From IMG/VR virus record IMGVR_UViG_2547132421_000005: DNA of 34,077 nucleotides; one strand, given 5' to 3'. The position numbers were made by a program, and so were the translations under genes. The notes under the pieces are model-generated. The model saw only the letters and a list, made by a program, of their open reading frames with translations, did no database searches and was not told where the DNA came from. The DNA is from a virus. Taxonomy: Duplodnaviria > Heunggongvirae > Uroviricota > Caudoviricetes. Positions within the stretch are counted from its first letter, which is position 1, and each line of letters begins with the position of its first letter. Below are positions 4,072 to 33,427 of the stretch, in pieces.

Positions 4072-4686
4072 TTATCTAAAAGTCTTTCCACTTTTAACAT
4101 CTAGGTATATTCTGTTCGACAACGTCATTCCTCCGCAATATGTGAAATAGATGTTTTCACCCTTATTGCTTGATGCCATCCACCCTCCGATTTCCTTAAA
4201 ATCGCTTTCCGTGCAGACCCCTTCATTTATTAACTTCCTAGCTGCCGAAGAAAACTCTTTTTTGTATATACGGTAGTCATCAGATCCTTTGATTAAAGTA
4301 TCATCTCCGCTCGCATTTTCAGCAGGATCTGATGGCCTTTCACTGCTAAGATCACTAAGTTTAACCCATTCTGAAAACTTGCCATTAACGATTCCATTTT
4401 TTCTTGTGCAGGATTTATTACCTTCTTTAATATATTCGCTTTCCCCTCCAACACATGAGGCTGAATATGGCTCAGTTATACGAACCCATTCACCTTTTTT
4501 TTCTAGAAAATCTACGCCTTCCCTGAAAAATAGTTTCCCAGCCACTCCACATTTACTTGAAGGGCAGGTATGTCTTTCCGTTCGATCAACAACAACCCAT
4601 AGTTTTGATTCATTTTTTGCCATTGCCGATGGTATTTGAGATGAGACAATTAACGTAAGCCCTAAAATTAGTATTGATTTTTTCAT
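4072..4686 (-). CDS. Secreted/periplasmic Cys-rich protein of unknown function, 204 aa
   Basis: Track ORF; N-terminal signal peptide MKKSILILGLTLIVSSQIPSAMA then mature region with about 10 Cys; AT-rich; own terminator downstream. Confidence 0.65.
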   Translation of the reverse strand: MKKSILILGLTLIVSSQIPSAMAKNESKLWVVVDRTERHTCPSSKCGVAGKLFFREGVDFLEKKGEWVRITEPYSASCVGGESEYIKEGNKSCTRKNGIVNGKFSEWVKLSDLSSERPSDPAENASGDDTLIKGSDDYRIYKKEFSSAARKLINEGVCTESDFKEIGGWMASSNKGENIYFTYCGGMTLSNRIYLDVKSGKTFR

Positions 4687-4984: not shown

Positions 4985-5236
4985 TCACGCTGCTCGTTGA
5001 GTTTTGATTTTTGCTGTCTCCAGCTCAACACGCAGTTTCCCCACCGTTAGCGCAATATCCTCGTTCTCCTGGTCGCGGCGTTTGATGTATTGCTGGTTTC
5101 TTTCCCGTTCATCCAGCAGTGTCAGCACAATCGATGGTGTTACCAGCTCATGGAAAAGGTCCGCGTCAAATCCCCAGTTGTCAGGCATTGCCTGCTCTGC
5201 CGCTTCACGCAGTGCCTGAGAGTGAATTACGCTCAC
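4985..5236 (-). CDS. Hypothetical early-left protein, 83 aa, C-terminal coiled coil
   Basis: Track ORF; overlaps the start of the next gene by 4 nt. Confidence 0.5.
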   Translation of the reverse strand: MSVIHSQALREAAEQAMPDNWGFDADLFHELVTPSIVLTLLDERERNQQYIKRRDQENEDIALTVGKLRVELETAKIKTQRAA

Positions 5237-5454
5237 TTCGAACCTCTCTGTTTACTGATAAGCTCCAGATCTTCCTGGCAACTTGCACAAGTCCGACAAC
5301 CCTGAACGGCCAGGCGTCTTAGCTCATCTATGGGATCGCCACACTCACAACAATGAGTGGCAGATACAGCCTGGTGGTTCAGGCGGCGCATTTTTATTGC
5401 TGTGTTGCGCTGTAATTCTTCAATTTCTGATGCTGAATCAATGATGTCTGCCAT
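5233..5454 (-). CDS. TraR/DksA-family C4 zinc-finger protein (lambda orf73-like), 73 aa
   Basis: Track ORF; CCECGDPIDELRR...CRTCASCQ is the typical TraR/DksA C4 zinc-finger pattern. Confidence 0.8.
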   Translation of the reverse strand: MADIIDSASEIEELQRNTAIKMRRLNHQAVSATHCCECGDPIDELRRLAVQGCRTCASCQEDLELISKQRGSK

Positions 5455-5552
5455 CTTCCATTAATCCCTGAATTGTTGGTTAATACGCTTGGGGGTAAAT
5501 GCGAGCAATAAAAAAGGAGCCTGTAGCTCCCTGATAATTTTGCTTTTCATGT

Positions 5553-5768
5553 TCATCGTTCCTTAAAGACGCCGTTTAACATGCCGATTGCCAGGCTTAA
5601 ATGAGTCGGTGTGAATCCCATCAGCGTTACCGTTTCGCGGTGCTTCTTCAGTACGCTACGGCAAATGTCATCGACGTTTTTATCCGGAAACTGCTGTCTG
5701 GCTTTTTTGATTTCAGAATTAGCCTGACGGGCAATGCTGCGAAGGGCGTTTTCTTGCTGAGGTGTCAT
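5553..5768 (-). CDS. Hypothetical small protein (lambda orf61-position), 71 aa
   Basis: Within track ORF 5553..5834; I place the start at the internal Met (MTPQQENALRS...) because the upstream 22 codons overlap the neighbouring gene. Start uncertain. Confidence 0.45.
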   Translation of the reverse strand: MTPQQENALRSIARQANSEIKKARQQFPDKNVDDICRSVLKKHRETVTLMGFTPTHLSLAIGMLNGVFKER

Positions 5769-5844
5769 TGAACAAGCCCCATGTCGGCAAGCATAAGCAC
5801 ACAGAATATGAAGCCCGCTGCCAGAAAAATGCATTCAGTGGTTG

Positions 5845-6036
5845 TCATACCTGGTCTCTCTCATCTGCTTCTGCTTTCGCCACCATCATTTCCAGCTTTT
5901 GTGAAAGGGATGCGGCTAACGTATGAAATTCTTCGTCTGTTTCTACTGGTATTGGCACAAACCTGACTCCAATTTGAGCGAGGCTATGTGCCATCTCGAT
6001 ACACGTTCTTAACTCAACAGGAGATGCTTTGTGCAT
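5845..6036 (-). CDS. Hypothetical small protein (lambda orf63-position), 63 aa
   Basis: Track ORF; tightly packed with neighbours in the pL operon. Confidence 0.5.
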   Translation of the reverse strand: MHKASPVELRTCIEMAHSLAQIGVRFVPIPVETDEEFHTLAASLSQKLEMMVAKAEADERDQV

Positions 6037-6197
6037 ACAGCCCCCCGTTTATTATTTATCTCCTCAGCCAGCCGCTGTGCTTTCAGGGGATTTCTGATAA
6101 CAGAAAGGCCGGGAAATACCCAGCCTCGCTTTGTAACGGAGTAGACGAAAGTGATCGCACCTACCCGGATATTATCGTGAGGATGCTTCATCGCCAT
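6009..6197 (-). CDS. Hypothetical small protein (lambda orf60a-position), 62 aa
   Basis: Track ORF; start overlaps the exo stop, as orf60a does in lambda. Confidence 0.5.
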
Positions 6198-6868
6198 TGC
6201 TCCCCAAATACAAAACCAATTTCAGCCAGTGCCTCGTCCATTTTTTCGATGAACTCCGGCACCATCTCGTCAAAACTCGCCATGTACTTTTCATCCCGCT
6301 CAACCACGACATAATGCAGGCCTTCACGCTTCATACGCGGGTCATAGTTGGCAAAGTACCAGGCATCTTTTCGCGTCACCCACATGCTGTACTGCACCTG
6401 GGCCATGTAAGCCGACTTTATGGCCTCGAAACCACCGAGCCGGAACTTCATGAAATCCCGGGAGGTAAACGGGCATTTCAGCTCAAGGCCATTGCCGTCA
6501 CTGCATAAACCATCGGGAGAGCAGGCGGTACGCATACTTTCGTCGCGATAGATGATCGGGGATTCAGTAACATTCACGCCGGAAGTGAATTCAAACAGAG
6601 TTCTGGCGTCGTTCTCGTACTGTTTTCCCCATGCCAGCGCCTTAGCATTAACTTCCGGAGCCACACCGGTGCAAACCTCAGCCAGCAGGGTGTGGAAGTA
6701 GGACATTTTCATGTCAGGCCACTTTTTTCCGGAGCGGGGTTTTGCTATCACATTGTGAACTTCTGAAGCGGTGATGACGCCGAGCCGTAATTTGTGCCAC
6801 GCATCATCCCCCTGTTCGACAGCTCTCACGTCGATTCCGGTACGCTGCAGGATAATGTCCGGTGTCAT
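6188..6868 (-). CDS. exo: Lambda exonuclease (Red alpha), 226 aa
   Basis: Track ORF; [43 protein letters not shown] recognised as lambda Exo; same length. Confidence 0.95.
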
Positions 6869-7650
6869 GCAGCCACCTTCTGCTCAGTGGCTTTCTGTTT
6901 CAGGAATCCAAGAGCTTTCACTGCTTCGGCCTGTGTCAGTTCTGACGATGCGCGAATGTCGCGGCGAAATATCTGGGAACAGAGCGGCAATAAGTCGTCA
7001 TCCCATGTTTTATCCAGGGCAATCAGCAGAGTGTTAATCTCCTGCATGGTTTCATCGTTAACCGGAGTGATGTCGCGTTCCGGCTGACGTTCTGCAGTGT
7101 ATGCGGTATTTTCGACAATGCGCTCGGCTTCATCCTTGTCATAGATACCAGCAAATCCGAAGGCGAGACGGGCACACTGAATCATGGCTTTATGCCGTAA
7201 CATCCGTTTGGGATGCGACTGCCACGGCCCCGTGATTTCTCTGCCTTCGCGGGTTTTGAATGGTTCGCGGCGGCATTCATCCATCCACTCGGTAACGCAG
7301 ATCGGATGATTGCGGTCTTTGCGGTAAATCCGGCATGTGCAGGATTCATTGTCCTGCTCAAAGTCCATGCCATCAAACTGCTGGTTTTCATTGATGATAC
7401 GGGACCAGCCATCAACGCCCACCACCGGAACGATGCCGTTCTGCTTGTCAGGGAAGGCGTAAATTTCTTTCGTCCACGGATTAAGGCCGTACTGGTTGGC
7501 GACGATCAGCAATGCGATGAACTGCGCATCGCTGGCATCACCTTTAAATGCCGTCTGGCGAAGAGTGGTGATCAGTTCCTGTGGGTCGACAGAATCCATG
7601 CCGACGCGTTCAGCCAGCTTCCCAGCCAGCGTTGCGAGTGCTGTACTCAT
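6865..7650 (-). CDS. bet: Red beta single-strand annealing protein, 261 aa
   Basis: Track ORF; [48 protein letters not shown] recognised as lambda Bet. Confidence 0.95.
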
Positions 7651-7655
7651 CCGTT

Positions 7656-8072
7656 TTATACCTCTGAATCAATATCAACCTGGTGGTGAGCAATGGTTTC
7701 AACCATGTACCGGATGTGTTCTGCCATGCGCTCCTGAAACTCAACATCGTCATCAAACGCACGGGTAATGGCTTTTTTGCTGGCCCCGTGGCGTTGTAAA
7801 TGATCGATGCAGAGTGATTCAAACAGGTGCTGGGGCAGACCTTTTTCCATGTCGTCTGCCAGTTCTGCCTCTTTCTCTTCACGGGCGATCTGCTGGTAGT
7901 GACGCGTCCAGCTCTGAGCCTCAAGACGATCCTGAATGTAATAAGCGTTCATGGCTGAACTCCTGAAATAGCTGTGAAAATATCGCCCGCGAAATGCCGG
8001 GCTGATTAGGAAAACAGGAAAGGAGGTTAGTGAATGCTTTTGCTTGATCTCAGTTTCAGTATTAATATCCAT
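7656..8072 (-). CDS. gam: Gam (RecBCD inhibitor), 138 aa
   Basis: Track ORF; [16 protein letters not shown]...[10 protein letters not shown] recognised as lambda Gam. Confidence 0.95.
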
Positions 8073-8170
8073 TTTTTATAAGCGTCGACGGCCTCACGAA
8101 ACATCTTTTCATCGCCAATAAAAGTGGCGATAGTGAATTTAGTCTGGATAGCCATAAGTGTTTGATCCAT
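8027..8170 (-). CDS. kil: Kil (host cell-division inhibitor), 47 aa
   Basis: Internal Met of track ORF 8027..8296: [47 protein letters not shown] matches lambda Kil; overlaps gam and cIII as in lambda. Confidence 0.85.
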
Positions 8171-8303
8171 TTTTTGGGACTCCTGGCTGATTAAGTATGT
8201 CGATAAGGCGTTTCCATCCGTCACGTAATTTACGGGTGATTCGTTCAAGTAAAGATTCGGAAGGGCAGCCAGCAACAGGCCACCCTGCAATGGCATATTG
8301 CAT
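8139..8303 (-). CDS. cIII: CIII (FtsH inhibitor, stabilises CII), 54 aa
   Basis: My own translation of the minus strand from the ATG at 8303: MQYAIAGWPVAGCPSESLLERITRKLRDG..., matching lambda CIII; not in track (below cutoff). Confidence 0.75.
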   Translation of the reverse strand: MQYAIAGWPVAGCPSESLLERITRKLRDGWKRLIDILNQPGVPKNGSNTYGYPD

Positions 8304-8375
8304 GGTGTGCTCCTTATTTATACATAACGAAAAACGCCTCGAGTGAAGCGTTATTGGTATGCGGTAACGCCGCGC

Positions 8376-8744
8376 TCAGGCGGCTTTGATAGTCATATCA
8401 TCTGAATCAAATATTCCTGATGTATCGATATCGGTAATTCTTATTCCTTCGCTACCATCCATTGGAGGCCATCCTTCCTGACCATTTCCATCATTCCAGT
8501 CGAACTCACACACAACACCATATGCATTTAAGTCGCTTGAAATTGCTATAAGCAGAGCATGTTGCGCCAGCATGATTAATACAGCATTTAATACAGAGCC
8601 GTGTTTATTGAGTCGGTATTCAGAGTCTGACCAGAAATTATTAATCTGGTGAAGTTTTTCCTCTGTCATTACGTCATGGTCGATTTCAATTTCTATTGAT
8701 GCTTTCCAGTCGTAATCAATGATGTATTTTTTGATGTTTGACAT
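8376..8744 (-). CDS. ea10: Ea10-type single-strand binding protein, 122 aa
   Basis: Track ORF; same length and position as lambda ea10. Confidence 0.8.
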   Translation of the reverse strand: MSNIKKYIIDYDWKASIEIEIDHDVMTEEKLHQINNFWSDSEYRLNKHGSVLNAVLIMLAQHALLIAISSDLNAYGVVCEFDWNDGNGQEGWPPMDGSEGIRITDIDTSGIFDSDDMTIKAA

Positions 8745-8764
8745 CTATTCATATCCTCACAGAT

Positions 8765-8792
8765 AAAAAATCGCCCTCACATTGGAGGGCAA
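8765..8792 (-). terminator. Candidate tL2-like intrinsic terminator upstream of ea10 in the pL operon
   Basis: Forward tcgccctcacattggagggc: 6-bp stem gccctc/gagggc, followed on the minus strand by a run of six T. Read by eye. Confidence 0.4.
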
Positions 8793-9004
8793 AGAAGATT
8801 TCCAATAATCAGAACAAGTCGGCTCCTGTTTAGTTACGAGCGACATTGCTCAGTGTATTCACTCGTTGGAATGAATACACAGTGCAGTGTTTATTAGTAT
8901 GCCTGTCTTTTAACCACATCAGGCTCGGTGGTTCTCGTGTACCCCTACAGCGAGAAATCGGATAAACTCTATTCACCCCTACAGAGAGCAAAAGAGAAAC
9001 GCCG

Positions 9005-9586
9005 ATGAACAACTCATGGTGGCAGGAACTAATGCATTTTTTCCTGCAAGGAATGACACTTAAACAGTTGATTCATATGCTAATCATCCTAATCATATTG
9101 ATTATTGTTATGCCTGTAAGCGTAAAAGAATGGATAAACCTGCATAATCCAGAAATCCTTCCTCATTACTGGATGTATTACATCCTGTTGTTTTGCGTTA
9201 GCTATGTGCTTAACGGCGTTGTTAATTCCGCTTATCACGCTGTGACTGAAAGAATTGAGATATTCGCTGCTCAGAAGCGCAAATCTAAAGAAGAGAAATA
9301 CGTGCAAGATTTGTTTGATTCGTTAACTCTTGGAGAAAGAGCGTATTTGGCATTCGCTGTAGCCGCTAATAACCAGCTAAAGACAGAAAAGGGAAGCCCT
9401 GAAGCAATCTCATTGCTCGAAAAAGGGCTTCTTATTCGGGTACCTTCTGCTACTGGATATCCTGAAATCGACCGTTTTGTTATCCCGGAACGCTATAGAA
9501 ATGAGTGCTACATTAGGTTTGCTGGGAAGAAAGACAGTCTTATGGATGAACTTATCGCTCAGGATAAGCATGGCAAAAACAAGTAA
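9005..9586 (+). CDS. sieB: Superinfection exclusion protein B, 193 aa, membrane protein
   Basis: Track ORF; hydrophobic N-terminal segment LIHMLIILIILIIVMPVSV; recognised as lambda/P22-type SieB; plus strand within the leftward operon, as in lambda. Confidence 0.8.
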   Translation: MNNSWWQELMHFFLQGMTLKQLIHMLIILIILIIVMPVSVKEWINLHNPEILPHYWMYYILLFCVSYVLNGVVNSAYHAVTERIEIFAAQKRKSKEEKYVQDLFDSLTLGERAYLAFAVAANNQLKTEKGSPEAISLLEKGLLIRVPSATGYPEIDRFVIPERYRNECYIRFAGKKDSLMDELIAQDKHGKNK

Positions 9587-9602
9587 TTAGCAAATTAATT
9601 TA

Positions 9603-9875
9603 TCATCTCGCCGTCAGTTGTTTTGATTTCCGGTAGCCTGCCGCGTAAATGGCTACGTTTGGCAGGCAAATACTTCCACTGCATTCATCTGCCTTCTTGC
9701 AGCGAAGGCTTCCGAGTGATGCTGCTTTGTCTGCTCTGACGCAACCAGAGAGCTTTAGCGCAATTTTTCGCGCCAGTCGCTGTTCTTGCATTGCCTGCTC
9801 ACGTTGAGCCTGTCTGCGTGCTCTGCGGCGATTTCTGGCGTTATCGTCAGCCAGATATGTAATGACTACTGCCAT
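9603..9875 (-). CDS. N-like transcription antitermination protein (P22 gene 24 / phage 21 N type), 90 aa
   Basis: Track ORF; N-terminal arginine-rich motif NARNRRRARRQAQREQ; first gene downstream of pL/nutL. Confidence 0.75.
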   Translation of the reverse strand: MAVVITYLADDNARNRRRARRQAQREQAMQEQRLARKIALKLSGCVRADKAASLGSLRCKKADECSGSICLPNVAIYAAGYRKSKQLTAR

Positions 9876-9981
9876 GTTGACCTCCGATGATTGACTTTGG
9901 CGGTGACGCGCCGGGTGCTTATCTTCCGGTTGCCGTCGTGCAGCTGCACTTCACGTCACCCCAAAGCCAACTACTCTTTGG

Positions 9982-10023
9982 TTCCCGCATTTCGGCGGGA
10001 CAATCCCATCAATGTTAAAGAGC
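9982..10023 (-). promoter_or_regulatory. nutL (boxA GCTCTTTAACA plus boxB hairpin) on the pL transcript
   Basis: Minus-strand reading gctctttaaca followed about 14 nt later by the hairpin tcccgc-cgaaat-gcggga; the same boxA/boxB pair recurs at nutR. Read by eye. Confidence 0.55.
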
Positions 10024-10070
10024 CTGCCAATCTGTTCCGTTTGGCTACCAGCGTCCTGCCGATGACTTAA

Positions 10071-10098
10071 ATTTAAGATTTCTTTAACTATTGGTCAA
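10071..10098 (-). promoter_or_regulatory. Candidate pL promoter (TTGACC, 16 bp spacer, TTAAAT on the minus strand) within an operator-like TTAAG-rich region
   Basis: Reverse complement of 10071-10098 gives TTGACC aatagttaaagaaatc TTAAAT; oriented toward the N-like gene. Confidence 0.45.
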
Positions 10099-10159
10099 GA
10101 GTGTTTTTGAAGAAAACTTAAATTTTGTTGCGAAGCTTAAGTTTTGCTTTGATTTTTAA

Positions 10160-10188
10160 AGGAAAGAAAAAAAGGGGCGAATGCCCCT
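10160..10188 (-). terminator. Intrinsic terminator immediately after the repressor gene
   Basis: Minus-strand reading aggggc-attc-gcccct followed by seven T; lies at the repressor stop codon. Confidence 0.5.
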
Positions 10189-10838
10189 TATGGAAGGTTT
10201 GCTATTTTTGCATCGACAACTACACCGATGATTTTGCAGTTCCCGTTGATCTCAATCATCGGATATTGTGGGTTAAGTGGTTTTAGAAACCTTCTGCCAG
10301 CATCAATAACTAACTTCTTGAAAGTTGCCTCGTTTTCTCCTTCGAGCTTTGCCACTACCAGCTTCCCATTACGAGGTTCTACTTCAGGATCGACTAGTAT
10401 TATCATCCCTTCCGGGATGCTAAGACCGGCTGGAGCCGTCATCGAATCACCCTTTACGTCCAGCCAAAACGAATCTTCTGAACAATCTACGGTTGTATCG
10501 TACCAGTTATCTATTGCACGCTTATGATATGGCTCTACAGCTTCCATCCAACATCCTGCGCTTACCCAACTAATTAGAGGATACGAACCTCTTGGATCAT
10601 GCCTGCTGTGATAGGCAATGTTTGAAAGACTATCTTCTCCTTTCAACAAGTAATCAGGGGAGCACTGTAAAGCCTTGGCTAAAGCCAATAGGTTTTCGCC
10701 ATTGGGCTCAGTTTCAGAACGCTCCCATTGGGAAATAGCAACATTAGACACGCCAACCATCTTGCCAAGGGCAGCTTGCCTAATCTTAAGTTCTTTTCTG
10801 CGAGCGCGAATACGCTCACCCATCAGTTGTGTATTCAT
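10188..10838 (-). CDS. c2: P22 c2-type (phage 21 cI-type) repressor, 216 aa; HTH plus LexA-like S24 autocleavage domain
   Basis: Track ORF; MNTQLMGERIRARRKELKIRQAALGKMVGVSNVAISQWERSETEPNGENLLALAKAL recognised as P22 c2-like; C-terminal domain with GDSM serine motif. Confidence 0.9.
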   Translation of the reverse strand: MNTQLMGERIRARRKELKIRQAALGKMVGVSNVAISQWERSETEPNGENLLALAKALQCSPDYLLKGEDSLSNIAYHSRHDPRGSYPLISWVSAGCWMEAVEPYHKRAIDNWYDTTVDCSEDSFWLDVKGDSMTAPAGLSIPEGMIILVDPEVEPRNGKLVVAKLEGENEATFKKLVIDAGRRFLKPLNPQYPMIEINGNCKIIGVVVDAKIANLP

Positions 10839-10840
10839 AG

Positions 10841-10906
10841 TTAAGACATCTTAAATAAACTTGACTTAAGATTCCTTTGATAGATAATTTAAGTGTTCTT
10901 TAATTT
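10841..10906. promoter_or_regulatory. Divergent OR/PR/PRM region: three TTAAG...CTTAA-type operators and PR (TTGACT, 16 bp, GATAAT)
   Basis: ttaagacatcttaaat (10841-10856), acttaagattcctttgat and atttaagtgttctttaatt palindrome-like sites; PR -35 ttgact at 10861-10866 and -10 gataat at 10883-10888, upstream of the cro ATG at 10919. Confidence 0.6.
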
Positions 10907-10918
10907 CGGAGCGAGTCT

Positions 10919-11104
10919 ATGTACAAGAAAGATGTTATCGACCACTTCGGAACCCAGCGTGCGGTAGCTAAAGCGTTAGGCATTAGCGATGCAGCAGTCT
11001 CTCAGTGGAAGGAAGTCATCCCAGAGAAAGACGCCTATCGACTGGAAGTCGTTACAGCTGGCGCCCTGAAGTATCAAGAAAGTGCTTATCGCAAAGCGGC
11101 ATAA
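10919..11104 (+). CDS. cro: Cro, 61 aa (P22-type)
   Basis: Track ORF; MYKKDVIDHFGTQRAVAKALGISDAAVSQWKEVIPEKDAYRLEVVTAGALKYQE recognised as P22 Cro. Confidence 0.9.
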   Translation: MYKKDVIDHFGTQRAVAKALGISDAAVSQWKEVIPEKDAYRLEVVTAGALKYQESAYRKAA

Positions 11105-11110
11105 GCAAAT

Positions 11111-11156
11111 TGCTCTTTAACAGTCATGGTCCTTATTCCCGCCGAAATGCGGGAAT
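11111..11156 (+). promoter_or_regulatory. nutR (boxA TGCTCTTTAACA plus boxB hairpin)
   Basis: tgctctttaaca at 11111-11122, then attcccgccgaaatgcgggaat hairpin at 11135-11156; same elements as nutL. Confidence 0.6.
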
Positions 11157-11212
11157 ACAACGCGCATCAGTTGGTGCGTATAACTTCTTATTTGTTAAGG
11201 AAATACTTACAT

Positions 11213-11491
11213 ATGCAACTTACAAGTACTCGCAAGAAAGCGAATGCAATCACAAGCAACATCCTGAATCGAATTGCTGTACGTGGTCAGCGAAAGGTTG
11301 CTGATGCATTAGGGATTAATGAATCGCAAATTTCGCGATGGAAAGACAGCTTTATCCCAAAGATGGCCATGCTTCTGGCTGTGCTGGAGTGGGGTGTTGA
11401 AGACGAGGAATTAGCAAAGCTAGCAAAGAAAGTAGCCATGGTGCTGACAAAAGAAAAGCCTCAAGACTGCTGCAACAGTTTTGAGGCCTGA
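11213..11491 (+). CDS. c1: c1 (CII-like) transcriptional activator, 92 aa
   Basis: Internal ATG of track ORF 11126..11491 (MQLTSTRKKANAITSNILNRIAVRGQRKVADALGINESQISRW...), HTH; the upstream part of the track ORF spans nutR and is not coding. Confidence 0.8.
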   Translation: MQLTSTRKKANAITSNILNRIAVRGQRKVADALGINESQISRWKDSFIPKMAMLLAVLEWGVEDEELAKLAKKVAMVLTKEKPQDCCNSFEA

Positions 11492-11525
11492 TGTAGAAAG
11501 ACTGGATCAATCCACAGGAGTCATT

Positions 11526-12425
11526 ATGACAAATACAGCAAAAATACTCAACTTCGGCAGAGGTAACTTTACCGGACAGGAGCGTAATGTGGCAGATCTC
11601 GATGATGGTTACGCCAGACTATCAAATATGCTGCTTGAGGCTTATTCAGGCGCAGATCTGACCAAGCGACAGTTTAAAGTGCTGCTTGCCATTCTGCGTA
11701 AAACCTATGGGTGGAATAAACCAATGGACAGAATCACCGATTCTCAACTTAGCGAGATTACAAAGTTACCTGTCAAACGGTGCAATGAAGCCAAGTTAGA
11801 ACTCGTCAGAATGAATATTATCAAGCAGCAAGGCGGCATGTTTGGACCAAATAAAAACATCTCAGAATGGTGTATCCCTCAAAACGAGGGAAAATCCCCT
11901 AAAACGAGGGATAAAACATCCCTCAAATTGGGGGATTGCTATCCCTCAAAACAGGGGGACACAAAAGACACTATTACAAAAGAAAAAAGAAAAGATTATT
12001 CGTCCGAGAATTCTGGCGAATCCTCTGACCAGCCAGAAAACGATCTTTCTGTGGTTAAACCGGATGCTGCAATTCAGAGCGGCAGTAAGTGGGGAACAGC
12101 AGAAGACCTGACCGCCGCAGAGTGGATGTTTGACATGGTGAAGACCATCGCGCCATCAGCCAGAAAACCGAATTTTGCTGGGTGGGCTAACGATATCCGC
12201 CTGATGCGTGAACGTGACGGACGTAACCACCGCGATATGTGTGTGCTTTTCCGCTGGGCCTGCCAGGACAACTTCTGGTCCGGTAACGTGCTGAGTCCGG
12301 CCAAACTCCGCGACAAGTGGACCCAGCTCGAAATCAACCGTAACAAGCAACAGGCTGGCGTGACAGCCGGAAAACCAAAACTCGACCTGACAAACACTGA
12401 CTGGATTTACGGGGTGGATCTATGA
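11526..12425 (+). CDS. O: Lambda-type replication initiator O, 299 aa
   Basis: Internal ATG of track ORF 11481..12425 (MTNTAKILNFGRGNFTGQERNVADLDDGYARLSNMLLEAYSG...) recognised as lambda O; contains the ori iterons. Confidence 0.95.
   Translation: MTNTAKILNFGRGNFTGQERNVADLDDGYARLSNMLLEAYSGADLTKRQFKVLLAILRKTYGWNKPMDRITDSQLSEITKLPVKRCNEAKLELVRMNIIKQQGGMFGPNKNISEWCIPQNEGKSPKTRDKTSLKLGDCYPSKQGDTKDTITKEKRKDYSSENSGESSDQPENDLSVVKPDAAIQSGSKWGTAEDLTAAEWMFDMVKTIAPSARKPNFAGWANDIRLMRERDGRNHRDMCVLFRWACQDNFWSGNVLSPAKLRDKWTQLEINRNKQQAGVTAGKPKLDLTNTDWIYGVDL
11873..11960. repeat. ori-lambda iterons: four roughly 18-bp repeats (tccctcaaaacgaggga-like), followed by an AT-rich stretch to about 12000
   Basis: tccctcaaaacgaggga / tcccctaaaacgaggga / atccctcaaattggggga / atccctcaaaacaggggga seen directly; then caaaagacactattacaaaagaaaaaagaaaag. 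Confidence 0.8.
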
Positions 12426-13123
12426 AAAACATCGCCGCACAGATGGTTAACTTTGACCGTGAGCAGATGCGTCGGATCGCCAACAACATGCCGGAACAGT
12501 ACGACGAAAAGCCACAGGTACAGCAGGTAGCGCAGATCATCAACGGTGTGTTCAGCCAGTTACTGGCAACTTTCCCGGCGAGTCTGGCTAACCGTGACCA
12601 GAACGAACTGAACGAAATCCGCCGCCAGTGGGTTCTGGCTTTCCGGGAAAACGGGATCACCACAATGGAACAGGTTAACGCAGGAATGCGCGTAGCCCGT
12701 CGGCAGAATCGACCATTTCTGCCATCACCCGGGCAGTTTGTTGCATGGTGCCGGGAAGAAGCATCCGTTATCGCCGGACTGCCAAACGTCAGCGAGCTGG
12801 TTGATATGGTTTACGAGTATTGCCGGAAGCGAGGCCTGTATCCGGATGCGGAGTCTTATCCGTGGAAATCAAACGCGCACTACTGGCTGGTTACCAACCT
12901 GTATCAGAACATGCGGGCCAATGCGCTTACTGATGCGGAATTACGGCGCAAGGCTGCCGATGAACTGACCTGTATGACAGCGCGAATTAACCGTGGTGAG
13001 ACGATACCTGAACCAGTAAAACAACTTCCTGTTATGGGCGGTAGACCTCTAAATCGTGCACAGGCTCTGGCGAAGATCGCAGAAATTAAAGCTAAGTTCG
13101 GACTGAAAGGAGCAAGTGTATGA
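12422..13123 (+). CDS. P: Replication protein P (DnaB loader), 233 aa
   Basis: Track ORF; MKNIAAQMVNFDREQMRRIANNMPEQYDEKPQVQQVAQIINGVFSQLLATF recognised as lambda P. Confidence 0.95.
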   Translation: MKNIAAQMVNFDREQMRRIANNMPEQYDEKPQVQQVAQIINGVFSQLLATFPASLANRDQNELNEIRRQWVLAFRENGITTMEQVNAGMRVARRQNRPFLPSPGQFVAWCREEASVIAGLPNVSELVDMVYEYCRKRGLYPDAESYPWKSNAHYWLVTNLYQNMRANALTDAELRRKAADELTCMTARINRGETIPEPVKQLPVMGGRPLNRAQALAKIAEIKAKFGLKGASV

Positions 13124-13410
13124 CGGGCAAAGAGGCAATTATTCATTACCTGGGGACGCATAATAGCTTCTGTGCGCCGGACGTTGCCGCGCTAACAGGC
13201 GCAACAGTAACCAGCATAAATCAGGCCGCGGCTAAAATGGCACGGGCAGGTCTTCTGGTTATCGAAGGTAAGGTCTGGCGAACGGTGTATTACCGGTTTG
13301 CTACCAGGGAAGAACGGGAAGGAAAGATGAGCACGAACCTGATTTTTAAGGAGTGTCGCCAGAGTGCCGCGATGAAACGGGTATTGGCGGTATATGGAGT
13401 TAAAAGATGA
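13120..13410 (+). CDS. ren: Ren, 96 aa
   Basis: Track ORF; MTGKEAIIHYLGTHNSFCAPDVAALTGATVTSINQAAAKMARAGLLVIEGK recognised as lambda Ren. Confidence 0.9.
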   Translation: MTGKEAIIHYLGTHNSFCAPDVAALTGATVTSINQAAAKMARAGLLVIEGKVWRTVYYRFATREEREGKMSTNLIFKECRQSAAMKRVLAVYGVKR

Positions 13411-13435
13411 CCATCTACATTACTGAGCTAATAAC

Positions 13436-13467
13436 AGGCCTGCTGGTAATCGCAGGCCTTTTTATTT
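13436..13467 (+). terminator. tR2-like intrinsic terminator between ren and ninB
   Basis: aggcctgc-tggtaatc-gcaggcct: 8-bp perfect stem followed by tttttattt. Confidence 0.55.
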
Positions 13468-13483
13468 GGGGGAGAGGGAAGTC

Positions 13484-13924
13484 ATGAAAAAACTAACCTT
13501 TGAAATTCGATCTCCAGCACATCAGCAAAACGCTATTCACGCAGTACAGCAAATCCTTCCAGACCCAACCAAACCAATCGTAGTAACCATTCAGGAACGC
13601 AACCGCAGCTTAGACCAAAACAGGAAGCTATGGGCCTGCTTAGGTGACGTCTCTCGTCAGGTTGAATGGCATGGTCGCTGGCTGGATGCAGAAAGCTGGA
13701 AGTGTGTGTTTACCGCAGCATTAAAGCAGCAGGATGTTGTTCCTAACCTTGCCGGGAATGGCTTTGTGGTAATAGGCCAGTCAACCAGCAGGATGCGTGT
13801 AGGCGAATTTGCGGAGCTATTAGAGCTTATACAGGCATTCGGTACAGAGCGTGGCGTTAAGTGGTCAGACGAAGCGAGACTGGCTCTGGAGTGGAAAGCG
13901 AGATGGGGAGATCGGGCTGCATGA
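13484..13924 (+). CDS. ninB: NinB (Orf-family recombination mediator), 146 aa
   Basis: Internal ATG of track ORF 13466..13924 (MKKLTFEIRSPAHQQNAIHAVQQILPDPTKPIVVTIQERNRSLDQNRKLWA...). Confidence 0.9.
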   Translation: MKKLTFEIRSPAHQQNAIHAVQQILPDPTKPIVVTIQERNRSLDQNRKLWACLGDVSRQVEWHGRWLDAESWKCVFTAALKQQDVVPNLAGNGFVVIGQSTSRMRVGEFAELLELIQAFGTERGVKWSDEARLALEWKARWGDRAA

Positions 13925-14452
13925 CTATCAAATCAAATACGCCAGCACACGACAAGGACTGCTGGCAAACGAACGCCGCTTTGGCTTTTTGATGCACTGG
14001 ATATTGAGTTTGGATTCTGGCTGGATTCGGCAGCGAGCGACAAAAATGCTCTGTGTGCTCACTGGCTAACTGAGGCCGACGACGCGCTCAATTCTGAGTG
14101 GGTAAGCCACGGTGCAATCTGGAATAACCCACCGTACAGCAATATCAGGCCGTGGGTGGAAAAAGCTGCTGAGCAGTGCATACAACAGCAACAGACGGTA
14201 GTTATGCTTGTGCCAGAGGATATGTCAGTCGGATGGTTCAGCAAGGCTCTGGAGAGTGTCGACGAAGTTCGCATTATCACTGATGGACGGATTAATTTTA
14301 TCGAACCATCGACAGGGCTGGAGAAGAAGGGAAACAGCAAAGGCTCCATGCTGCTGATTTGGCGACCGTTCATCAGTCCTCGACGGATGTTTACTACCGT
14401 ATCCAAAGCGGCATTGATGGCGATCGGGCAGGGCGTCAGGAGGGCGGCATGA
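13921..14452 (+). pseudogene. Phage Dam-like DNA N6-adenine methyltransferase, disrupted by a +1 frameshift (apparent 4-bp tandem duplication aacg-aacg at 13968-13975)
   Basis: ATG at 13921 overlaps the ninB stop; frame 1 reads MTIKSNTPAHDKDCWQTNAALAF then stop; frame 2 continues PLWLFDALDIEFGF...AIWNNPPYSNIRPWVEKAAEQ... with the NPPY catalytic motif, to 14452. Removing one aacg copy gives a continuous ...DCWQTPLWLFDALD... reading. Confidence 0.7.
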
Positions 14453-14625
14453 GGCGACAGCGACGAAGTTTCACCGACATCATCTGCGAAAACTGCAAAT
14501 ACCTTCCAACGAAACGCTCCAGAAATAAACGCAAGCCAATCCCAAAAGAATCTGACGTAAAAACCTTCAATTACACAGCTCACCTGTGGGATATCCGGTG
14601 GCTAAGATATCGTGCGAGGAAATGA
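14449..14625 (+). CDS. ninE: NinE, 58 aa
   Basis: Internal ATG of track ORF 14359..14625: [52 protein letters not shown]; start overlaps the Dam-like stop (ATGA). Confidence 0.8.
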
Positions 14626-16293: not shown

Positions 16294-16818
16294 TTATTGT
16301 TTAACCCATAATAATTCATTGACATTGAATCCCAACTTTTGAGCGGTTCGCACATAGTCTGCTTTTACTTTATCTGGAATAGTTGGGGTCCTTGCCAGAA
16401 TCCATAGGTATTCTCTGTTCGGACCACTGACAAGAGCATACTTATACTCATCATCCAGTTTGATTACATTATAGCCACCATAGAAGGGGCCAAAAAACGA
16501 AACCTTCAATGCTGCAGTTTTAGTATCTCCAGTAAAGTATGCTTTACCTTCGCTCTCGCTCCATTTATTTTTCGTTGGATCGTATCCACGGTTAAGTACA
16601 CGAATCCCTCCGTCGTTCCGTTTTCCATAAGTAGCGCTGACCTGTTCCAGACCACGTTCGAACCGGTTCTCGAGGCGAGCTATTTCATACCATTTTCCGA
16701 GGTAGCGGTTGGCGTCAAAATTTGTAATCGGCTGCACACCTTTAGGTGGTGTCGGGGCCTTACATGCTATAAGAGTGAAAGAGAGTGCAATGCCAGTCAA
16801 CACAGGCCATAACTTCAT
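16294..16818 (-). CDS. blc: Blc-like outer-membrane lipocalin lipoprotein, 174 aa
   Basis: Track ORF; signal peptide plus lipobox LIAC; YLGKWYEIARLENRFERGLEQVSATY is the lipocalin signature of Blc. Confidence 0.85.
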   Translation of the reverse strand: MKLWPVLTGIALSFTLIACKAPTPPKGVQPITNFDANRYLGKWYEIARLENRFERGLEQVSATYGKRNDGGIRVLNRGYDPTKNKWSESEGKAYFTGDTKTAALKVSFFGPFYGGYNVIKLDDEYKYALVSGPNREYLWILARTPTIPDKVKADYVRTAQKLGFNVNELLWVKQ

Positions 16819-17010
16819 AATAAATCCTGTACTTTTGATAGTTGAGAGTAAGTATGAAAGATAGATGATTACGACCGATCACTTAAAGAACTTTCATACT
16901 ATATTAGGAATAGTCCATAACAGAAAAATTGTCAGTGATGACGCCAGAAAGGCAATTTATTCCGTGCACTACACAGTTTATGTGTTAATGAATTAGTCAA
17001 GGGGGAGAAT

Positions 17011-17970
17011 ATGATAAAAAAACCTGTGATTGGAATCAGCGGTTGTTTGGCCGGTTCTGCTGTTCGTTTTGATGGTGGTCACAAAAGAGCTGACTTTTTA
17101 ATGGACAAATTAGTGGAATGGGTAACATTCAGACCAGTATGTCCGGAAATGGCTATAGGGCTGCCAGTTCCGCGTCCTGCTCTACGTCTTGTGCGCTCGA
17201 TGCAAGGAAATATACGGATGTGTTTCAGCCACGACCAGAATGAGGATGTGACAGAGAGAATGACAGAGTTTAGTCGTTCTTATATGGACAAATTAAAGGA
17301 TGTATCGGGGTTTGTGGTTTGTGCTAAATCTCCCAGCTGTGGCATGGAGCGCGTGCGTGTCTATGATGAAAATGGTAATCGAGGTCGTAAAGATGGAGTG
17401 GGACTATTTACGAGCACTTTGATGGAAAAGTTTTCCTGGCTACCGGTTGAAGAGGATGGGCGATTACATGATCCAGTGCTTCGTGAGAATTTTGTTGAAA
17501 GAGTTTTTGCTTTGCATGAGCTCAATCACCTTTACAAGGAGAAATTATCAAGAAGAGAGTTATTAGCTTTTCATAGTCGTTATAAGCTTCAGTTGTTGGC
17601 GCATAGTCAGGCAGGCTATAAAGATATGGGACCATTTGTGGCTGCAATACACGAGTGGGCGGACCTTGAATCATACTTTGAGGTGTATCGTGATAAGCTG
17701 ATGGCGATTCTCAGAAAACCTGCATCACGTAAAAATCACACGAATGTGCTGATGCATATACAGGGGTATTTTAGTAACTACTTAAGTACACGCCAGCGTA
17801 AAGAGTTGAGCGAGGTTATACTTAACTATCGTTCTGGCACATTACCTCTTCTTGCGCCGTTGACTCTGCTGAAGCATTATCTGGGTGAGTATCCTAATGA
17901 TTACTTGCTTACACAGAATTACTTCGATCCCTATCCGGACGAACTGGCTCTAAGACTGATGGTAAATTAA
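17011..17970 (+). CDS. DUF523-DUF1722 fusion protein (TudS/RudS-like thiouracil/4-thiouridine desulfidase family), 319 aa
   Basis: Track ORF; N-terminal Cys-rich DUF523-like region (GISGCLAG...CPE...SPSCG) and YbgA-like C-terminal half; family assignment from memory. Confidence 0.7.
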   Translation: MIKKPVIGISGCLAGSAVRFDGGHKRADFLMDKLVEWVTFRPVCPEMAIGLPVPRPALRLVRSMQGNIRMCFSHDQNEDVTERMTEFSRSYMDKLKDVSGFVVCAKSPSCGMERVRVYDENGNRGRKDGVGLFTSTLMEKFSWLPVEEDGRLHDPVLRENFVERVFALHELNHLYKEKLSRRELLAFHSRYKLQLLAHSQAGYKDMGPFVAAIHEWADLESYFEVYRDKLMAILRKPASRKNHTNVLMHIQGYFSNYLSTRQRKELSEVILNYRSGTLPLLAPLTLLKHYLGEYPNDYLLTQNYFDPYPDELALRLMVN

Positions 17971-18312
17971 TTGTATGCGATATCATCCAAAAGGATGAGT
18001 TCCTGCATGCAGGATATTTACAATCGTAAAAACTACACTATGATACCCAGAGTGTCAGTTTGTATAAAAACTCTGTTTACGCTGAAGAAACAATTGAGAT
18101 GCAACTTAAAGTTGGTAAACATGCCAGTCAAAATATATAATATTATGATTCCACGCAGCTATATATAATATAACAGATTGGTTTAATAATTTGTCTTTGT
18201 GAGTTAAATACATAATTTTATACTTGTGATGCAATGAAATTTTCCTTATTGTTGAACTGGCGAATATTGATTTTCCACCTATACTTACCTGGTGTAACCC
18301 CAATGATATCAG

Positions 18313-19053
18313 GTGGATAATATGCCATACATATGTTCTATCATTTTGGTGTTGAACTCGTTTGATGTCCGAATCGGTAAAGAAGATATTTTGTTTAAAA
18401 AAGGAAGTGCTGTTCTCATTGATTACAATTTAAAAGATTTTTTTTCATCAAATATAGATCATGTAATGATCGTAGATGTTGAAGAGAAAACAGTTAATGA
18501 TTTCTTTAAAAGCAACACACTCTCACCTTTTTCTGTAAGAAGGTTTTATCCGGCATACTTGATGGTGGAATGTGAAGATTTTTCATTGTTAAAGAACTTG
18601 ATTGCATGCTTGAATTGTGATGGCAGAACTGTGGATTTTGTTAGAAATCAAATATCACTTGCATGTCTTGCTATCTTATCTTCAGAGAAAATAGTGCAAA
18701 GTTTTTTATTTGGATGTCTTAATAGTTTAGGAAGTAAAGTTAAGGCTATTATTCACACGGATATATCTGCAGCATGGAGACTTTGTGATATATCTTCAAG
18801 ACTGTATCTGAGTGAAAGTCTGTTAAAAAGAAAATTAAAGCACGAAGGCTTATCATTTAGTAAGTTAATTCTTGAAGAGCGAATGGTGATGGCGGAAAGG
18901 TTATTAAGCTACAATTTATATTCTGTTGGAAAAGTTGCTGAGATATGCGGTTATGAAAACACGTCATATTTTGTAAGTGTTTTCAGAAGGTATTTTGGTG
19001 TTCCTCCCCATCAATATTCATCAAGATTTTTTTTAGAAAAAGACATGATGTAA
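18313..19053 (+). CDS. AraC-family transcriptional regulator (AppY/EnvY-like), 246 aa
   Basis: Track ORF; C-terminal AraC HTH (LSESLLKRKLKHEGLSFSKLILEERMVMAERLL...VGKVAEICGYENTSYFVSVFRRYFGVPPHQY); strongly AT-rich. Confidence 0.8.
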   Translation: MDNMPYICSIILVLNSFDVRIGKEDILFKKGSAVLIDYNLKDFFSSNIDHVMIVDVEEKTVNDFFKSNTLSPFSVRRFYPAYLMVECEDFSLLKNLIACLNCDGRTVDFVRNQISLACLAILSSEKIVQSFLFGCLNSLGSKVKAIIHTDISAAWRLCDISSRLYLSESLLKRKLKHEGLSFSKLILEERMVMAERLLSYNLYSVGKVAEICGYENTSYFVSVFRRYFGVPPHQYSSRFFLEKDMM

Positions 19054-19114
19054 CGTGATGCGTTTTAATGATTTTGTAATTTTCGTATTTGATAATTGTA
19101 TGATGCTTTCAGCT

Positions 19115-19146
19115 ACGCCAGAATAATCGCGGCGTTTTTCTTTTTG
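19115..19146 (+). terminator. Candidate terminator after the AraC-family gene
   Basis: acgcc-agaataatcgc-ggcgt hairpin (5-bp stem) followed by ttttctttttg; weak stem. Confidence 0.3.
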
Positions 19147-19240
19147 AATAGATGTTCAAGCCTTACGCTAATGTAACTTCTATACCTTTCCTCTTCGTTC
19201 CGAACCGTGTACACCATCCGTTATTTGCGGAGGTGAGGCT

Positions 19241-19296
19241 ATGAAATCCATGGATAAGTTAACAACGGGTGTCGCCTATGGCACCTCAGCAGGTAG
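19241..19296 (+). pseudogene. 5' fragment (18 codons) of a class II holin S (S21/EssD-like), truncated by IS3
   Basis: GGAGGTGAGG RBS, then MKSMDKLTTGVAYGTSAG with the dual-start MKSM motif, directly followed by the IS3 left inverted repeat at 19297. Hand-read. Confidence 0.6.
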
Positions 19297-19361
19297 TGAT
19301 CTTACCCAGCAATAGTGGACACGCGGCTAAGTGAGTAAACTCTCAGTCAGAGGTGACTCAC

Positions 19362-19661
19362 ATGACAAAAACAGTATCAACCAGTAAAAAACCCCGTAAA
19401 CAGCATTCGCCTGAATTTCGCAGTGAAGCCCTGAAGCTTGCTGAACGCATCGGTGTTACTGCCGCAGCCCGTGAACTCAGCCTGTATGAATCACAGCTCT
19501 ACAACTGGCGCAGTAAACAGCAAAATCAGCAGACGTCTTCTGAACGTGAACTGGAGATGTCTACCGAGATTGCACGTCTCAAACGCCAGCTGGCAGAACG
19601 GGATGAAGAGCTGGCTATCCTCCAAAAGGCCGCGACATACTTCGCGAAGCGCCTGAAATGA
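19362..19661 (+). CDS. insE: IS3 transposase OrfA (InsE), 99 aa
   Basis: Track ORF 19353..19661; [54 protein letters not shown]. Confidence 0.9.
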
Positions 19662-20524
19662 AGTATGTCTTTATTGAAAAACATCAGGCTGAGTTCAGCA
19701 TCAAAGCAATGTGCCGCGTGCTCCGGGTGGCCCGCAGCGGCTGGTATACGTGGTGTCAGCGGCGGACAAGGATAAGCACGCGTCAGCAGTTCCGCCAACA
19801 CTGCGACAGCGTTGTCCTCGCGGCTTTTACCCGGTCAAAACAGCGTTACGGTGCCCCACGCCTGACGGATGAACTGCGTGCTCAGGGTTACCCCTTTAAC
19901 GTAAAAACCGTGGCGGCAAGCCTGCGCCGTCAGGGACTGAGGGCAAAGGCCTCCCGGAAGTTCAGCCCGGTCAGCTACCGCGCACACGGCCTGCCTGTGT
20001 CAGAAAATCTGTTGGAGCAGGATTTTTACGCCAGTGGCCCGAACCAGAAGTGGGCAGGAGACATCACGTACTTACGTACAGATGAAGGCTGGCTGTATCT
20101 GGCAGTGGTCATTGACCTGTGGTCACGTGCCGTTATTGGCTGGTCAATGTCGCCACGCATGACGGCGCAACTGGCCTGCGATGCCCTGCAGATGGCGCTG
20201 TGGCGGCGTAAGAGGCCCCGGAACGTTATCGTTCACACGGACCGTGGAGGCCAGTACTGTTCAGCAGATTATCAGGCGCAACTGAAGCGGCATAATCTGC
20301 GTGGAAGTATGAGCGCAAAAGGTTGCTGCTACGATAATGCCTGCGTGGAAAGCTTCTTTCATTCGCTGAAAGTGGAATGTATCCATGGAGAACACTTTAT
20401 CAGCCGGGAAATAATGCGGGCAACGGTATTTAATTATATCGAATGTGATTACAATCGGTGGCGGCGGCACAGTTGGTGTGGCGGCCTCAGTCCGGAACAA
20501 TTTGAAAACCAGAACCTCGCTTAG
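19658..20524 (+). CDS. insF: IS3 transposase OrfB (InsF; normally made as an OrfAB frameshift fusion), 288 aa
   Basis: Track ORF; DDE integrase-core region ([31 protein letters not shown]...HTDRGGQY...). Confidence 0.9.
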
Positions 20525-20554
20525 GCCTGTGTCCATATTACGTGGGTAGGATCA

Positions 20555-20683: not shown

Positions 20684-20820
20684 AATCTTAACTACAATAT
20701 GATTCATTTTGATGATTGTTTCATAAGGAACAGTGAAGTAAGATCTAAGAGGAGTTAAATTTTATACAGTATAATCATAATATTGCAGCAAGGTGGTTAT
20801 AATTGAAAGAATATTTAGAT

Positions 20821-33412: not shown

Positions 33413-33427
33413 GTTGGAGTCATTACC

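Follow-up and report, generated by a model that had tools for sequence, protein, structure and literature searches.

A mosaic early control region with a 21/P22-type repressor core in a lambda-like Escherichia coli prophage

The 34,077 nt of DNA analyzed here (the window; IMG/VR virus record IMGVR_UViG_2547132421_000005) represent a lambda-like Escherichia coli prophage that adjoins ybhC, that is, the lambda attachment site. We studied its repressor region, with the genes N, c2, cro, c1, and O and their neighbors. With a probability of roughly 0.88, this is the early lysis/lysogeny control region of a lambdoid prophage that is composed of known modules of different ancestry. The interior between the lambda-type arms consists of at least five segments with differing nearest relatives and is not one cassette. 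The repressor and Cro are of the 21/P22 type and, judged by sequence comparison, the antiterminator N and the nut sites form a module of a type of its own that does not define the immunity type.

The region was compared with the corresponding loci of phage 21, HK140, P22, lambda, N7, CUS-3, HK629, and JEP4 using blastn, sliding-window DNA identity, blastp, Pfam and PHROG profiles, a promoter consensus scan, and RNA folding. The imm21 region of phage 21 was taken from GenBank OL657228 (related systems are lambda imm21 and prophage DE3), and NC_002371 served as the reference for P22 immC (sieB-24-c2-cro-c1). The known systems also compared were the siphoviruses HK140 and HK630 and the P22-like podoviruses JEP4, N7, IME10, CUS-3, and Gally. 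All Pfam matches (N_peptide, HTH_3 and Peptidase_S24, P22_Cro, Phage_CII, SieB, and Phage_rep_O) were above the curated cut-offs, and the PHROG assignments were concordant with them. The positions and identities that a previous, sequence-only reading had given for N (9603–9875, minus strand, denoted (−)), c2 (10188–10838, (−)), cro (10919–11104, (+)), c1 (11213–11491, (+)), and O (from 11526) were thereby confirmed.

Segments and junctions between lambda-type arms

The recombination genes on the left (5001–8895) are 97.4% identical to lambda and 96.9% identical to phage 21 (from 5243), and the segment with O, P, ren, and ninB on the right (11501–13924) is 98.0% identical to lambda, 97.9% to phage 21, and 97.8% to HK140. 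Between the two arms, blastn found no similarity to lambda anywhere in 8985–11500. Because the high identity of the flanks is lost so abruptly, the junctions with lambda are discrete, and the flanks are not equally diverged from lambda, as the nucleotide alignment proposed in the sequence-only reading has now revealed. On the left, the similarity to lambda stops at 8984, about 20 bp ahead of the start of sieB, so that the junction lies at about 8985. On the right, the junction lies inside the c1-O spacer (about 11492–11525), where identity to lambda and phage 21 resumes at about 11501 in both the alignment and blastn. The O-proximal part of this spacer, with the oop promoter and the ribosome-binding site of O, is conserved in all seven of the seven phages compared. 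The O gene itself (11526–12425, (+); 299 residues; Phage_rep_O) encodes a lambda-type replication protein with 99.3% identity to both lambda O and 21 O, and the iterons of the origin are visible within it at about 11870–11965.

The nearest relatives change repeatedly across the interior. The linker upstream of sieB (8900–8984) is 94% identical to lambda, and the bins covering 8900–8999 are 100% identical to HK140 and 96–98% identical to P22. For sieB together with the 3′ end of N (8900–9683), identity is 98.6% to HK140 and 86.8% to P22, with nothing in lambda or phage 21 beyond 8984. The middle of N (9684–9782) is shared with 21, HK629, N7, and HK140 at 96–99%. It is followed by the part encoding the arginine-rich motif of N, the N leader, and nutL (9783–10064), for which identity is 99.4% to HK140, 98.6% to N7, 97.9% to JEP4, and 76% to phage 21. 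The segment with PL/OL, the c2 terminator, and the C-terminal half of c2 (10065–10521) is closest to N7 and JEP4 (92%; 21, 82%; P22, 80%), and that with the N-terminal half of c2, OR/PR, and cro (10534–11111) is closest to 21 and HK629 (96.4%; N7, 90%; P22, 88%). Finally, nutR and c1 (11112–11500) are 97.2% identical to HK140, 90% to N7, and 79% to P22, and have no counterpart in phage 21. On the right, the sequence switches from 21-like to HK140-like exactly at boxA-R, and the region that begins at the start of the pL transcript and includes boxA-L is common to all phages compared. The joints appear to lie at short sequences that are conserved across types, namely, the linker upstream of sieB, a site inside N, the pL leader with boxA-L, the domain boundary of c2, boxA-R, and the c1-O spacer.

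At 8896–8899, next to the left arm, ral and lambda orf28 are missing in comparison with lambda, 21, and HK140. This junction reads TTTATT-AGTA-TGCCTGTC, with AGTA in place of about 340 bp that are found in these three phages (lambda locus 6057–6396 and HK140 locus 4192–4531, which have no counterpart in the window). A clean direct repeat was not found at the joint.

The c2 repressor (216 residues) contains a helix-turn-helix domain (HTH_3) and an S24 autocleavage domain (Peptidase_S24, 107 bits). In blastp comparisons, it is 98.6% identical to full-length 21 cI, 93% to P22 c2, and 34% to lambda cI, which bears out its previous assignment to the 21/P22 type. Among residues 1–68, 66 are identical to the N-terminal domain of P22 c2 (PDB 1ADR, 2R1J), and neither of the two differences falls within the SNVAISQWER helix. 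P22 c2 and 21 cI contain the same VSAG, GDSM, and FKKL motifs, and the Ala-Gly cleavage site and Ser/Lys dyad that they supply are those expected of a RecA-inducible S24 repressor.

A breakpoint is located within c2, at 10522–10533 (codons 102–106), just past the hinge. There are 106 sites that differ between 21 and N7; on the 5′ side of the breakpoint, all 45 of 45 match 21, and on the 3′ side, 44 of 54 match N7. The chi-square value for this breakpoint is 66 (45/45 versus 10/54 sites matching 21), and the accompanying change in divergence from 21 is significant as well (Fisher p = 2e-11). In the C-terminal half, 57 of the 321 nucleotides differ from 21, but these changes affect 54 codons synonymously and only 2 non-synonymously. 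By the Nei-Gojobori method, codons 106–216 (10188–10521) have a proportion of synonymous differences from 21 (pS) of 0.73 and a proportion of non-synonymous differences (pN) of 0.012, with about 98% protein identity, in contrast to a pS of 0.10 and a pN of 0 for codons 1–105, which encode no amino acid difference from 21 cI. The latter pS is of the same order as those of the arms versus lambda (0.09–0.12 for O, bet, and exo). Thus, the synonymous sites of the C-terminal half of c2 are saturated relative to 21 under very strong, indeed unusually strong, constraint. The comparison shows that several old DNA lineages encode nearly one and the same 21/P22-type repressor.

These values bear on the possibility that the region is decaying inside a cryptic prophage, in which case its regulatory genes would have lost their function, they would not be under selection, and the mosaic would only record old history. 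Such decay would fit with the replacement of the lysis cassette of this prophage by a helix-turn-helix gene and an IS3 element, with the presence of an IS1 copy in the late region, and with the lack of ral. However, the five open reading frames are full length and, like the promoters, operators, terminator, and the two nut sites, intact, the substitutions are overwhelmingly synonymous, and the region is 99.9–100% conserved across many unrelated isolates. Purifying selection of this strength indicates that the genes have been kept functional, and we consider decay unlikely.

Downstream of c2, an intrinsic terminator (AAGGGGCATTCGCCCCTT followed by a T run; 10172–10189, (−); fold z = −2.55) coincides with the terminator annotated in phage 21. 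The cro gene encodes 61 residues (P22_Cro, 9e-28, 96 bits versus a cut-off of 30) and runs divergently from PR; its product is 96.7% identical to Cro of 21 and 95% identical to that of P22, and matches the structure of P22 Cro (PDB 1RZS) at 6e-35, in line with its previous assignment to the 21/P22 type. Scans for the sigma-70 consensus placed PL at 10070–10098 (−), with the −35 element TTGACC, a 17-nt spacer, and the −10 element TAAATT, at the annotated pL position of 21 and P22, and PR on the plus strand, with the −35 element at 10861–10866 and the −10 element at 10883–10888 (10 of 12 consensus positions). Half-site scoring against ATTTAAG yielded three operators on each side, OL1 (10071–10088), OL2 (10106–10123), and OL3 (about 10125–10142) as well as OR3 (10839–10856), OR2 (10864–10881), and OR1 (10887–10904), of the 18-bp ATTTAAG-N4-CTTAAAT type. 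Compared with phage 21, OR1 and OR3 are unchanged and OR2 differs at one position; OR1 is identical to that of P22, too, as is OL2 to the P22 OL2. The operator core TNAAG-N4-CTTNA occurs five times in 34 kb, versus 0.57 expected, and four of these five occurrences are in the operator clusters.

These similarities suggest that c2 has the operator specificity of 21 and of P22 immC. The two phages reportedly share this specificity; a search of the accessible literature for stated cross-immunity between 21 and P22 returned nothing usable. No lambda operator was detected in the window within three mismatches and, given also the low identity of c2 to lambda cI, immunity to lambda would not be expected at the level of the repressor, as had been anticipated from the sequence.

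The antiterminator module, c1, and sieB

The N protein (90 residues; N_peptide, 2e-15, 57.5 bits versus a cut-off of 27.9; PHROG 271) is encoded by the first gene of the PL operon, which starts 195 bp downstream of the −10 element of PL. Three parts can be distinguished: residues 1–31 (9875–9783), which include the arginine-rich motif NARNRRRARRQ at residues 12–22, denoted type A; residues 32–64 (9782–9684); and residues 65–90 (9683–9606). In the protein alignment, the type-A motif also occurs in HK140, N7, and CUS-3, and the central part in these three phages as well as in 21 and HK629. The C-terminal tail resembles those of P22, HK140, and HK629, whereas 21, N7, and CUS-3 have lambda-like tails; tblastn detected the same tail in 933W-type N proteins. 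Over the whole protein, identity is 98.9% to JEP4 and 96.7% to HK140, but 56% to 21 N (across residues 1–64 only), 36% to P22 gp24, and 21% to lambda N in the alignment. A search of PDB sequences with N gave no meaningful match. For P22 versus L (PMC8022706) and for epsilon34 (PMC2629481), earlier studies describe exchanged N domains and novel N-terminal motifs, which imply that the boxB specificity is new, too. In the annotation of CUS-3, conserved "boundary sequences" between N and cI are named.

Both nut sites are of the same type. In nutL (9983–10023, (−)), boxA GCTCTTTAAC occupies 10023–10014 and boxB TCCCGCCGAAATGCGGGA 10000–9983, and the boxB hairpin is present in the minimum-free-energy fold; nutL is identical in HK140, N7, CUS-3, and JEP4. 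In nutR (11112–11154, (+)), boxA GCTCTTTAAC is found at 11112–11121 and boxB TCCCGCCGAAATGCGGGA at 11137–11154; the hairpin folds, and shuffled sequences gave 0 matches. The N motif of the window, DDNARNRRRARRQ, and its boxB, CCCGCCGAAATGCGGG, belong neither to the P22 class (N motif GNAKTRRHERRRK, boxB GCGCTGACAAAGCGC) nor to the 21 class (N motif GTAKSRYKARRA, boxB CACCTCTAACCGGGTG). Each of the five loci with a type-A N has exactly two copies of the type-A boxB, and none of the four loci with other N types has any. The boxA common to 21, HK140, N7, and the window is close to the boxA of the host rrn operons (TGCTCTTTAACAA), and boxA is not diagnostic of the immunity type.

Type A would thus be a third N/nut specificity beside those of 21 and P22. 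The chances are about even that the N motif DDNARNRRRARRQAQREQ and the boxB CCCGC-CGAAAU-GCGGG constitute a distinct, biochemically uncharacterized peptide-RNA specificity beside the lambda, 21, and P22 pairs. The boxB could be folded either as a hexaloop hairpin or with a C/U mismatch that closes a GAAA loop. A search of the accessible literature for studies of the HK620/HK140-type N/boxB yielded nothing usable, and the type-A pair appears not to have been characterized biochemically.

Two further observations concern the N locus. RefSeq labels for the gene at 9603–9875 are inconsistent among genomes ("hypothetical protein" or "transcriptional antitermination N peptide"). In HK140 (locus 5522–5724) and CUS-3 (locus 2708–2912), an extra 204 bp are present between nutL and the start of N, opposite position 9890 of the window. 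This insert is annotated as a 41-residue open reading frame in HK140 and as boundary sequence bsq5 in CUS-3, and it is absent from the window, N7, and JEP4.

The c1 gene encodes a CII-family activator of 92 residues (Phage_CII, 2e-44, 150 bits) that is 100% identical to HK140 cII, 89% to P22 c1, and 55% to lambda cII; there was no blastp match to 21 cII at E ≤ 1. A longer form of 121 residues (11126–11491), which is annotated in HK140 and N7, is unlikely, because it lacks a Shine-Dalgarno motif and starts inside nutR, overlapping boxB, and because the form of 92 residues matches P22 c1 and RefSeq. A putative C1 box of PRE of the TTGY-N6-TTGY type (TTGCGAGTACTTGT; 11235–11222, (−)) is located within the 5′ part of c1, where P22 has its annotated site. 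A second, perfect TTGC-N6-TTGC (TTGCTTGTGATTGC; 11246–11259, (−)) is located inside c1 as well, 11 bp upstream of this box (24 bp from start to start), and could be due to chance or could be a second C1 site. We rejected it as PRE, since the P22-homologous site is that at 11235–11222. An oop-like antisense unit (11446–11551, (−)) overlaps the 3′ end of c1. It consists of the promoter Po (11551–11523; −35 element TTGAGT, −10 element CATAAT) and a terminator hairpin at 11489–11456 with a U run (z = −3.1). Its counterparts are the oop promoter and terminator annotated in P22 and the oop feature of HK629. To the left of N, sieB (superinfection exclusion B; 9005–9586, (+)) encodes a P22-type protein of 193 residues with an internal Esc start (SieB, 1.1e-25; PHROG 1301, 6e-124). 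It is 99% identical to HK140 SieB and 85% to that of P22, with no blastp match to lambda SieB.

With regard to the N, nut, and c1 components, the sequence-only reading can therefore be retained only in part. N had been classified as P22/21-type, which is at odds with its identities. For nut, the boxA sequences are located as described, at 11112 (+) and 10023 (−), but they carry no information on the type, and the boxB sequences are unlike those of 21 and P22. The c1 product is indeed related to its P22 homolog, but not to that of 21.

By homology with the circuits of lambda, 21, and P22, and using sequence features alone, a mechanism can be proposed. In the lysogen, c2 would occupy the three OL and three OR sites, shutting off PL and PR and maintaining lysogeny, and activated RecA would trigger its autocleavage. 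Upon induction or infection, Cro would be produced from PR and N from PL. The arginine-rich motif of N would bind to boxB of nutL and nutR, with host Nus factors at boxA, and the N-modified RNA polymerase would pass terminators leftward, into the recombination genes distal to sieB, and rightward, into c1-O-P. C1 would then establish repression by activating PRE, which lies within the 5′ part of c1, and the oop antisense RNA would counteract c1.

The components described above allow us to evaluate the interpretation given in the sequence-only reading, namely, that a single P22/21-type cassette (N, nutL, c2, cro, nutR, and c1) was swapped as a unit into a lambda backbone, with joints in the sieB/N interval and the c1-O spacer. 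Several findings agree with such a swap: a non-lambda region with discrete boundaries is embedded between lambda-type genes, c2 and cro are of the 21/P22 type, the right joint maps to the c1-O spacer, and N7 contains one contiguous relative of 9684–11719 at 91%. However, the nearest relatives change from segment to segment, with a significant breakpoint within c2; N and boxB are neither 21- nor P22-type; c1 is unrelated to 21 cII; and sieB is non-lambda, too, so that the left joint had been misplaced by about 600 bp and is actually found upstream of the P22-type sieB. Moreover, the flanks are as 21-like as they are lambda-like, and phage 21 already has this arrangement. A model with a single donor was dropped, because none of the 452 matching phage records covers at least 80% of 8300–12500. 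The single swap is therefore improbable, slightly more so than decay. An assembly or scaffolding chimera of the source genome has a negligible probability: nothing specific speaks for it beyond the general experience that prophage repeats can be mis-assembled, whereas the 4.2 kb around the region are 100% identical, next to ybhC, in nine independent complete E. coli genomes, which implies a real sequence, at least 80% of this stretch is present in 83 genomes, and the full combination of modules (type-A nutR, window-type c1, lambda-type O, and P22-type sieB) recurs in at least five IMG/VR contigs.

Ancestry of the modules and the prophage that carries them

The composite of known modules can be traced by comparison with individual phages. 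Phage 21 has been known since the 1960s. Like the window, it has lambda-type exo-bet-gam-kil-cIII-ea10 genes to the left and O-P-ren genes to the right of a 21-type repressor/Cro core, and lambda-type arms around the imm21 core are described in its genome announcement (PMC9119081). The arms (5243–8895 and 11501–13924) and the core (10534–11111) of the window are each about 96–98% identical to phage 21, and N residues 32–64 are shared as well. Phage 21 differs in the arginine-rich motif of N, in boxB (CACCTCTAACCGGGTG and CAACCTAACCGTTG), in its lambda-like N tail, in an unrelated cII, in the presence of ral and absence of sieB, and in OL and the C-terminal half of c2, which have only 82% DNA identity and saturated synonymous sites.

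P22 resembles the window in gene order, with sieB convergent with the antiterminator gene, in the c2, Cro, c1, and SieB proteins (93%, 95%, 89%, and 85% identity), in the identical OR1 and OL2, and in the tail of gp24. It differs in its DNA, which is 80–88% identical throughout, in the gp24 motif and boxB (GCGCTGACAAAGCGC and CCGCCGACAACGCGG), and in having erf/abc recombination and gene 18/12 replication genes rather than the lambda types. HK140 matches 8900–10064 (sieB, N, and nutL) at 98–99% and 11112–14622 (nutR, c1, O, P, ren, and ninB onward) at 97.7%, but its repressor and Cro are unrelated and of the HK620 type (42% identical), and it has ral and the extra 204 bp before N. N7, CUS-3, and JEP4 combine the type-A motif and boxB with a 21/P22-type c2-cro and provide the best match for OL and the C-terminal half of c2 (92%). 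N7 and CUS-3 differ in their lambda-like N tail, in having ral instead of sieB, and in the N-terminal half of c2 (84%); CUS-3 and JEP4 have a lambda-type cII, and most of the HK140, HK630, and podovirus relatives have other replication genes. Finally, lambda shares with the window the att site, int-xis through exo-bet-gam-kil-cIII-ea10 and O-P-ren-ninB at 97–98%, and the logic of the circuit, but has rexAB and ral, which are absent from the window, and its cI, cII, and N are 34%, 55%, and 21% identical.

The simplest reading of these comparisons is that the arms and the core with the N-terminal half of c2, OR, and cro share a recent ancestor with phage 21, and that the intervening patches, which are HK140/JEP4-like (8900–10064), N7/CUS-3/JEP4-like at about 92% (10065–10521), and HK140-like (11112–11500), were acquired from elsewhere. 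Relative to the nearest characterized phage, what is exchanged are N-nutL, nutR-c1, sieB for ral, and the C-terminal half of c2 with OL. The immunity core is not the exchanged part, because the flanks are as close to 21 as to lambda, the core is similarly diverged, and 21 has the same layout. Hence, the notion of an immunity region swapped into a lambda backbone is borne out with regard to the discrete non-lambda region, but not with regard to the backbone, which could equally be called 21-like (96.9% and 97.9%).

Some points weigh against the interpretation of the region as a working control region of this ancestry. OL1 differs at three positions from OL1 of 21 and P22, and OL3 retains one good half-site (the right one), which makes the strength of repression at PL uncertain; OL3 of phage 21 likewise retains just one. 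Operator occupancy, immunity specificity, recognition of boxB by N, and activation of PRE are all deduced from homology. A 21-like backbone with patches and an HK140/JEP4-like cassette with a 21 patch both require four breakpoints, so that this count favors neither order nor direction of the exchanges over its reverse. In addition, genes for holin and endolysin are absent from the prophage, and the region may therefore now act only as an immunity and exclusion locus. The redundancy of the contigs surveyed below has to be added to these points.

The exact combination of modules is absent from the phage collection, in which the best cover of 9590–11530 is about 92% identical, yet it is common in E. 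coli genomes, with at least 80% of the region present in 130 of the 5,426 complete genomes. Several features of this particular copy lie outside the control region. At 18183–20554, essD/rrrD (holin/endolysin) are replaced by a gene with a helix-turn-helix domain and an IS3-family element in comparison with an otherwise 99.9% identical prophage of strain WP8-S18-CRE-02, and remnants of Rz/Rz1 are all that is left of the lysis genes, so this copy is probably lysis-defective. In the late (head/tail) region, a 768-bp IS1-like copy (32660–33427) is 95% identical to an IS1 elsewhere in the comparison strain. The late region also contains cargo genes (20803–22278 and 16294–17970): a homolog of the potassium transporter gene trkG, as is known from Rac, one gene of the lipocalin family, and one of the ybgA family, between Q and the lysis region. 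An Rfam search of 7500–12500 at E ≤ 1 had the cIII thermoregulator as its single match, with nothing credible inside the immunity region; this Lambda_thermo element (8258–8316, (−); 88.5 bits versus a gathering score of 50) precedes the lambda-type cIII.

Partners of the repressor core in IMG/VR

To explore the partners of the core, IMG/VR was scanned for an exact 37-mer spanning OR1-cro, and the contigs found (at least 120) were each classified; as these contigs are redundant and an exact match was required, the counts are not those of independent events, and many loci were too short for typing every module. Among the matches listed, the N motif type, the boxB of nutL, and the boxB of nutR were concordant in all 96 of the 96 readable loci, which points to a cognate match of N and boxB as far as co-occurrence can indicate it. 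These comprise 50 loci of type A, 36 of type 21, and 10 of type P22, so that type A is the most common N/nut partner of the imm21/P22 core (50 of the 96). The other modules are combined more freely in the same set. The N motif and the N tail types occur in eight of the nine possible combinations; cII is of the window/P22 type in 38 loci, of the 21/HK629 type in 34, and of the lambda type in 21; the replication genes are lambda-O in 17 loci and P22 gene 18 in 23; and the gene beyond N is sieB in 15 loci and ral in 21.

Among the matches listed, one immunity type is found together with three N/nut specificities, with several types of cII, and with two or more types of replication genes, whereas the N motif and the two boxB sequences never separate. 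Such a pattern is what the modular theory of lambdoid phage evolution predicts. N and the two nut sites flank the core and are nevertheless always co-inherited as a matched set in the loci typed, which implies selection against the products of single crossovers that would separate them. Taken together, the region reflects ordinary shuffling of phage modules and matters little beyond its correct annotation: the prophage should be annotated as having imm21-type immunity together with an N/nut system other than that of 21. Its carriers, which also have a P22-type SieB, would be predicted to be immune to phages of the 21/P22-immC type, but not to lambda.

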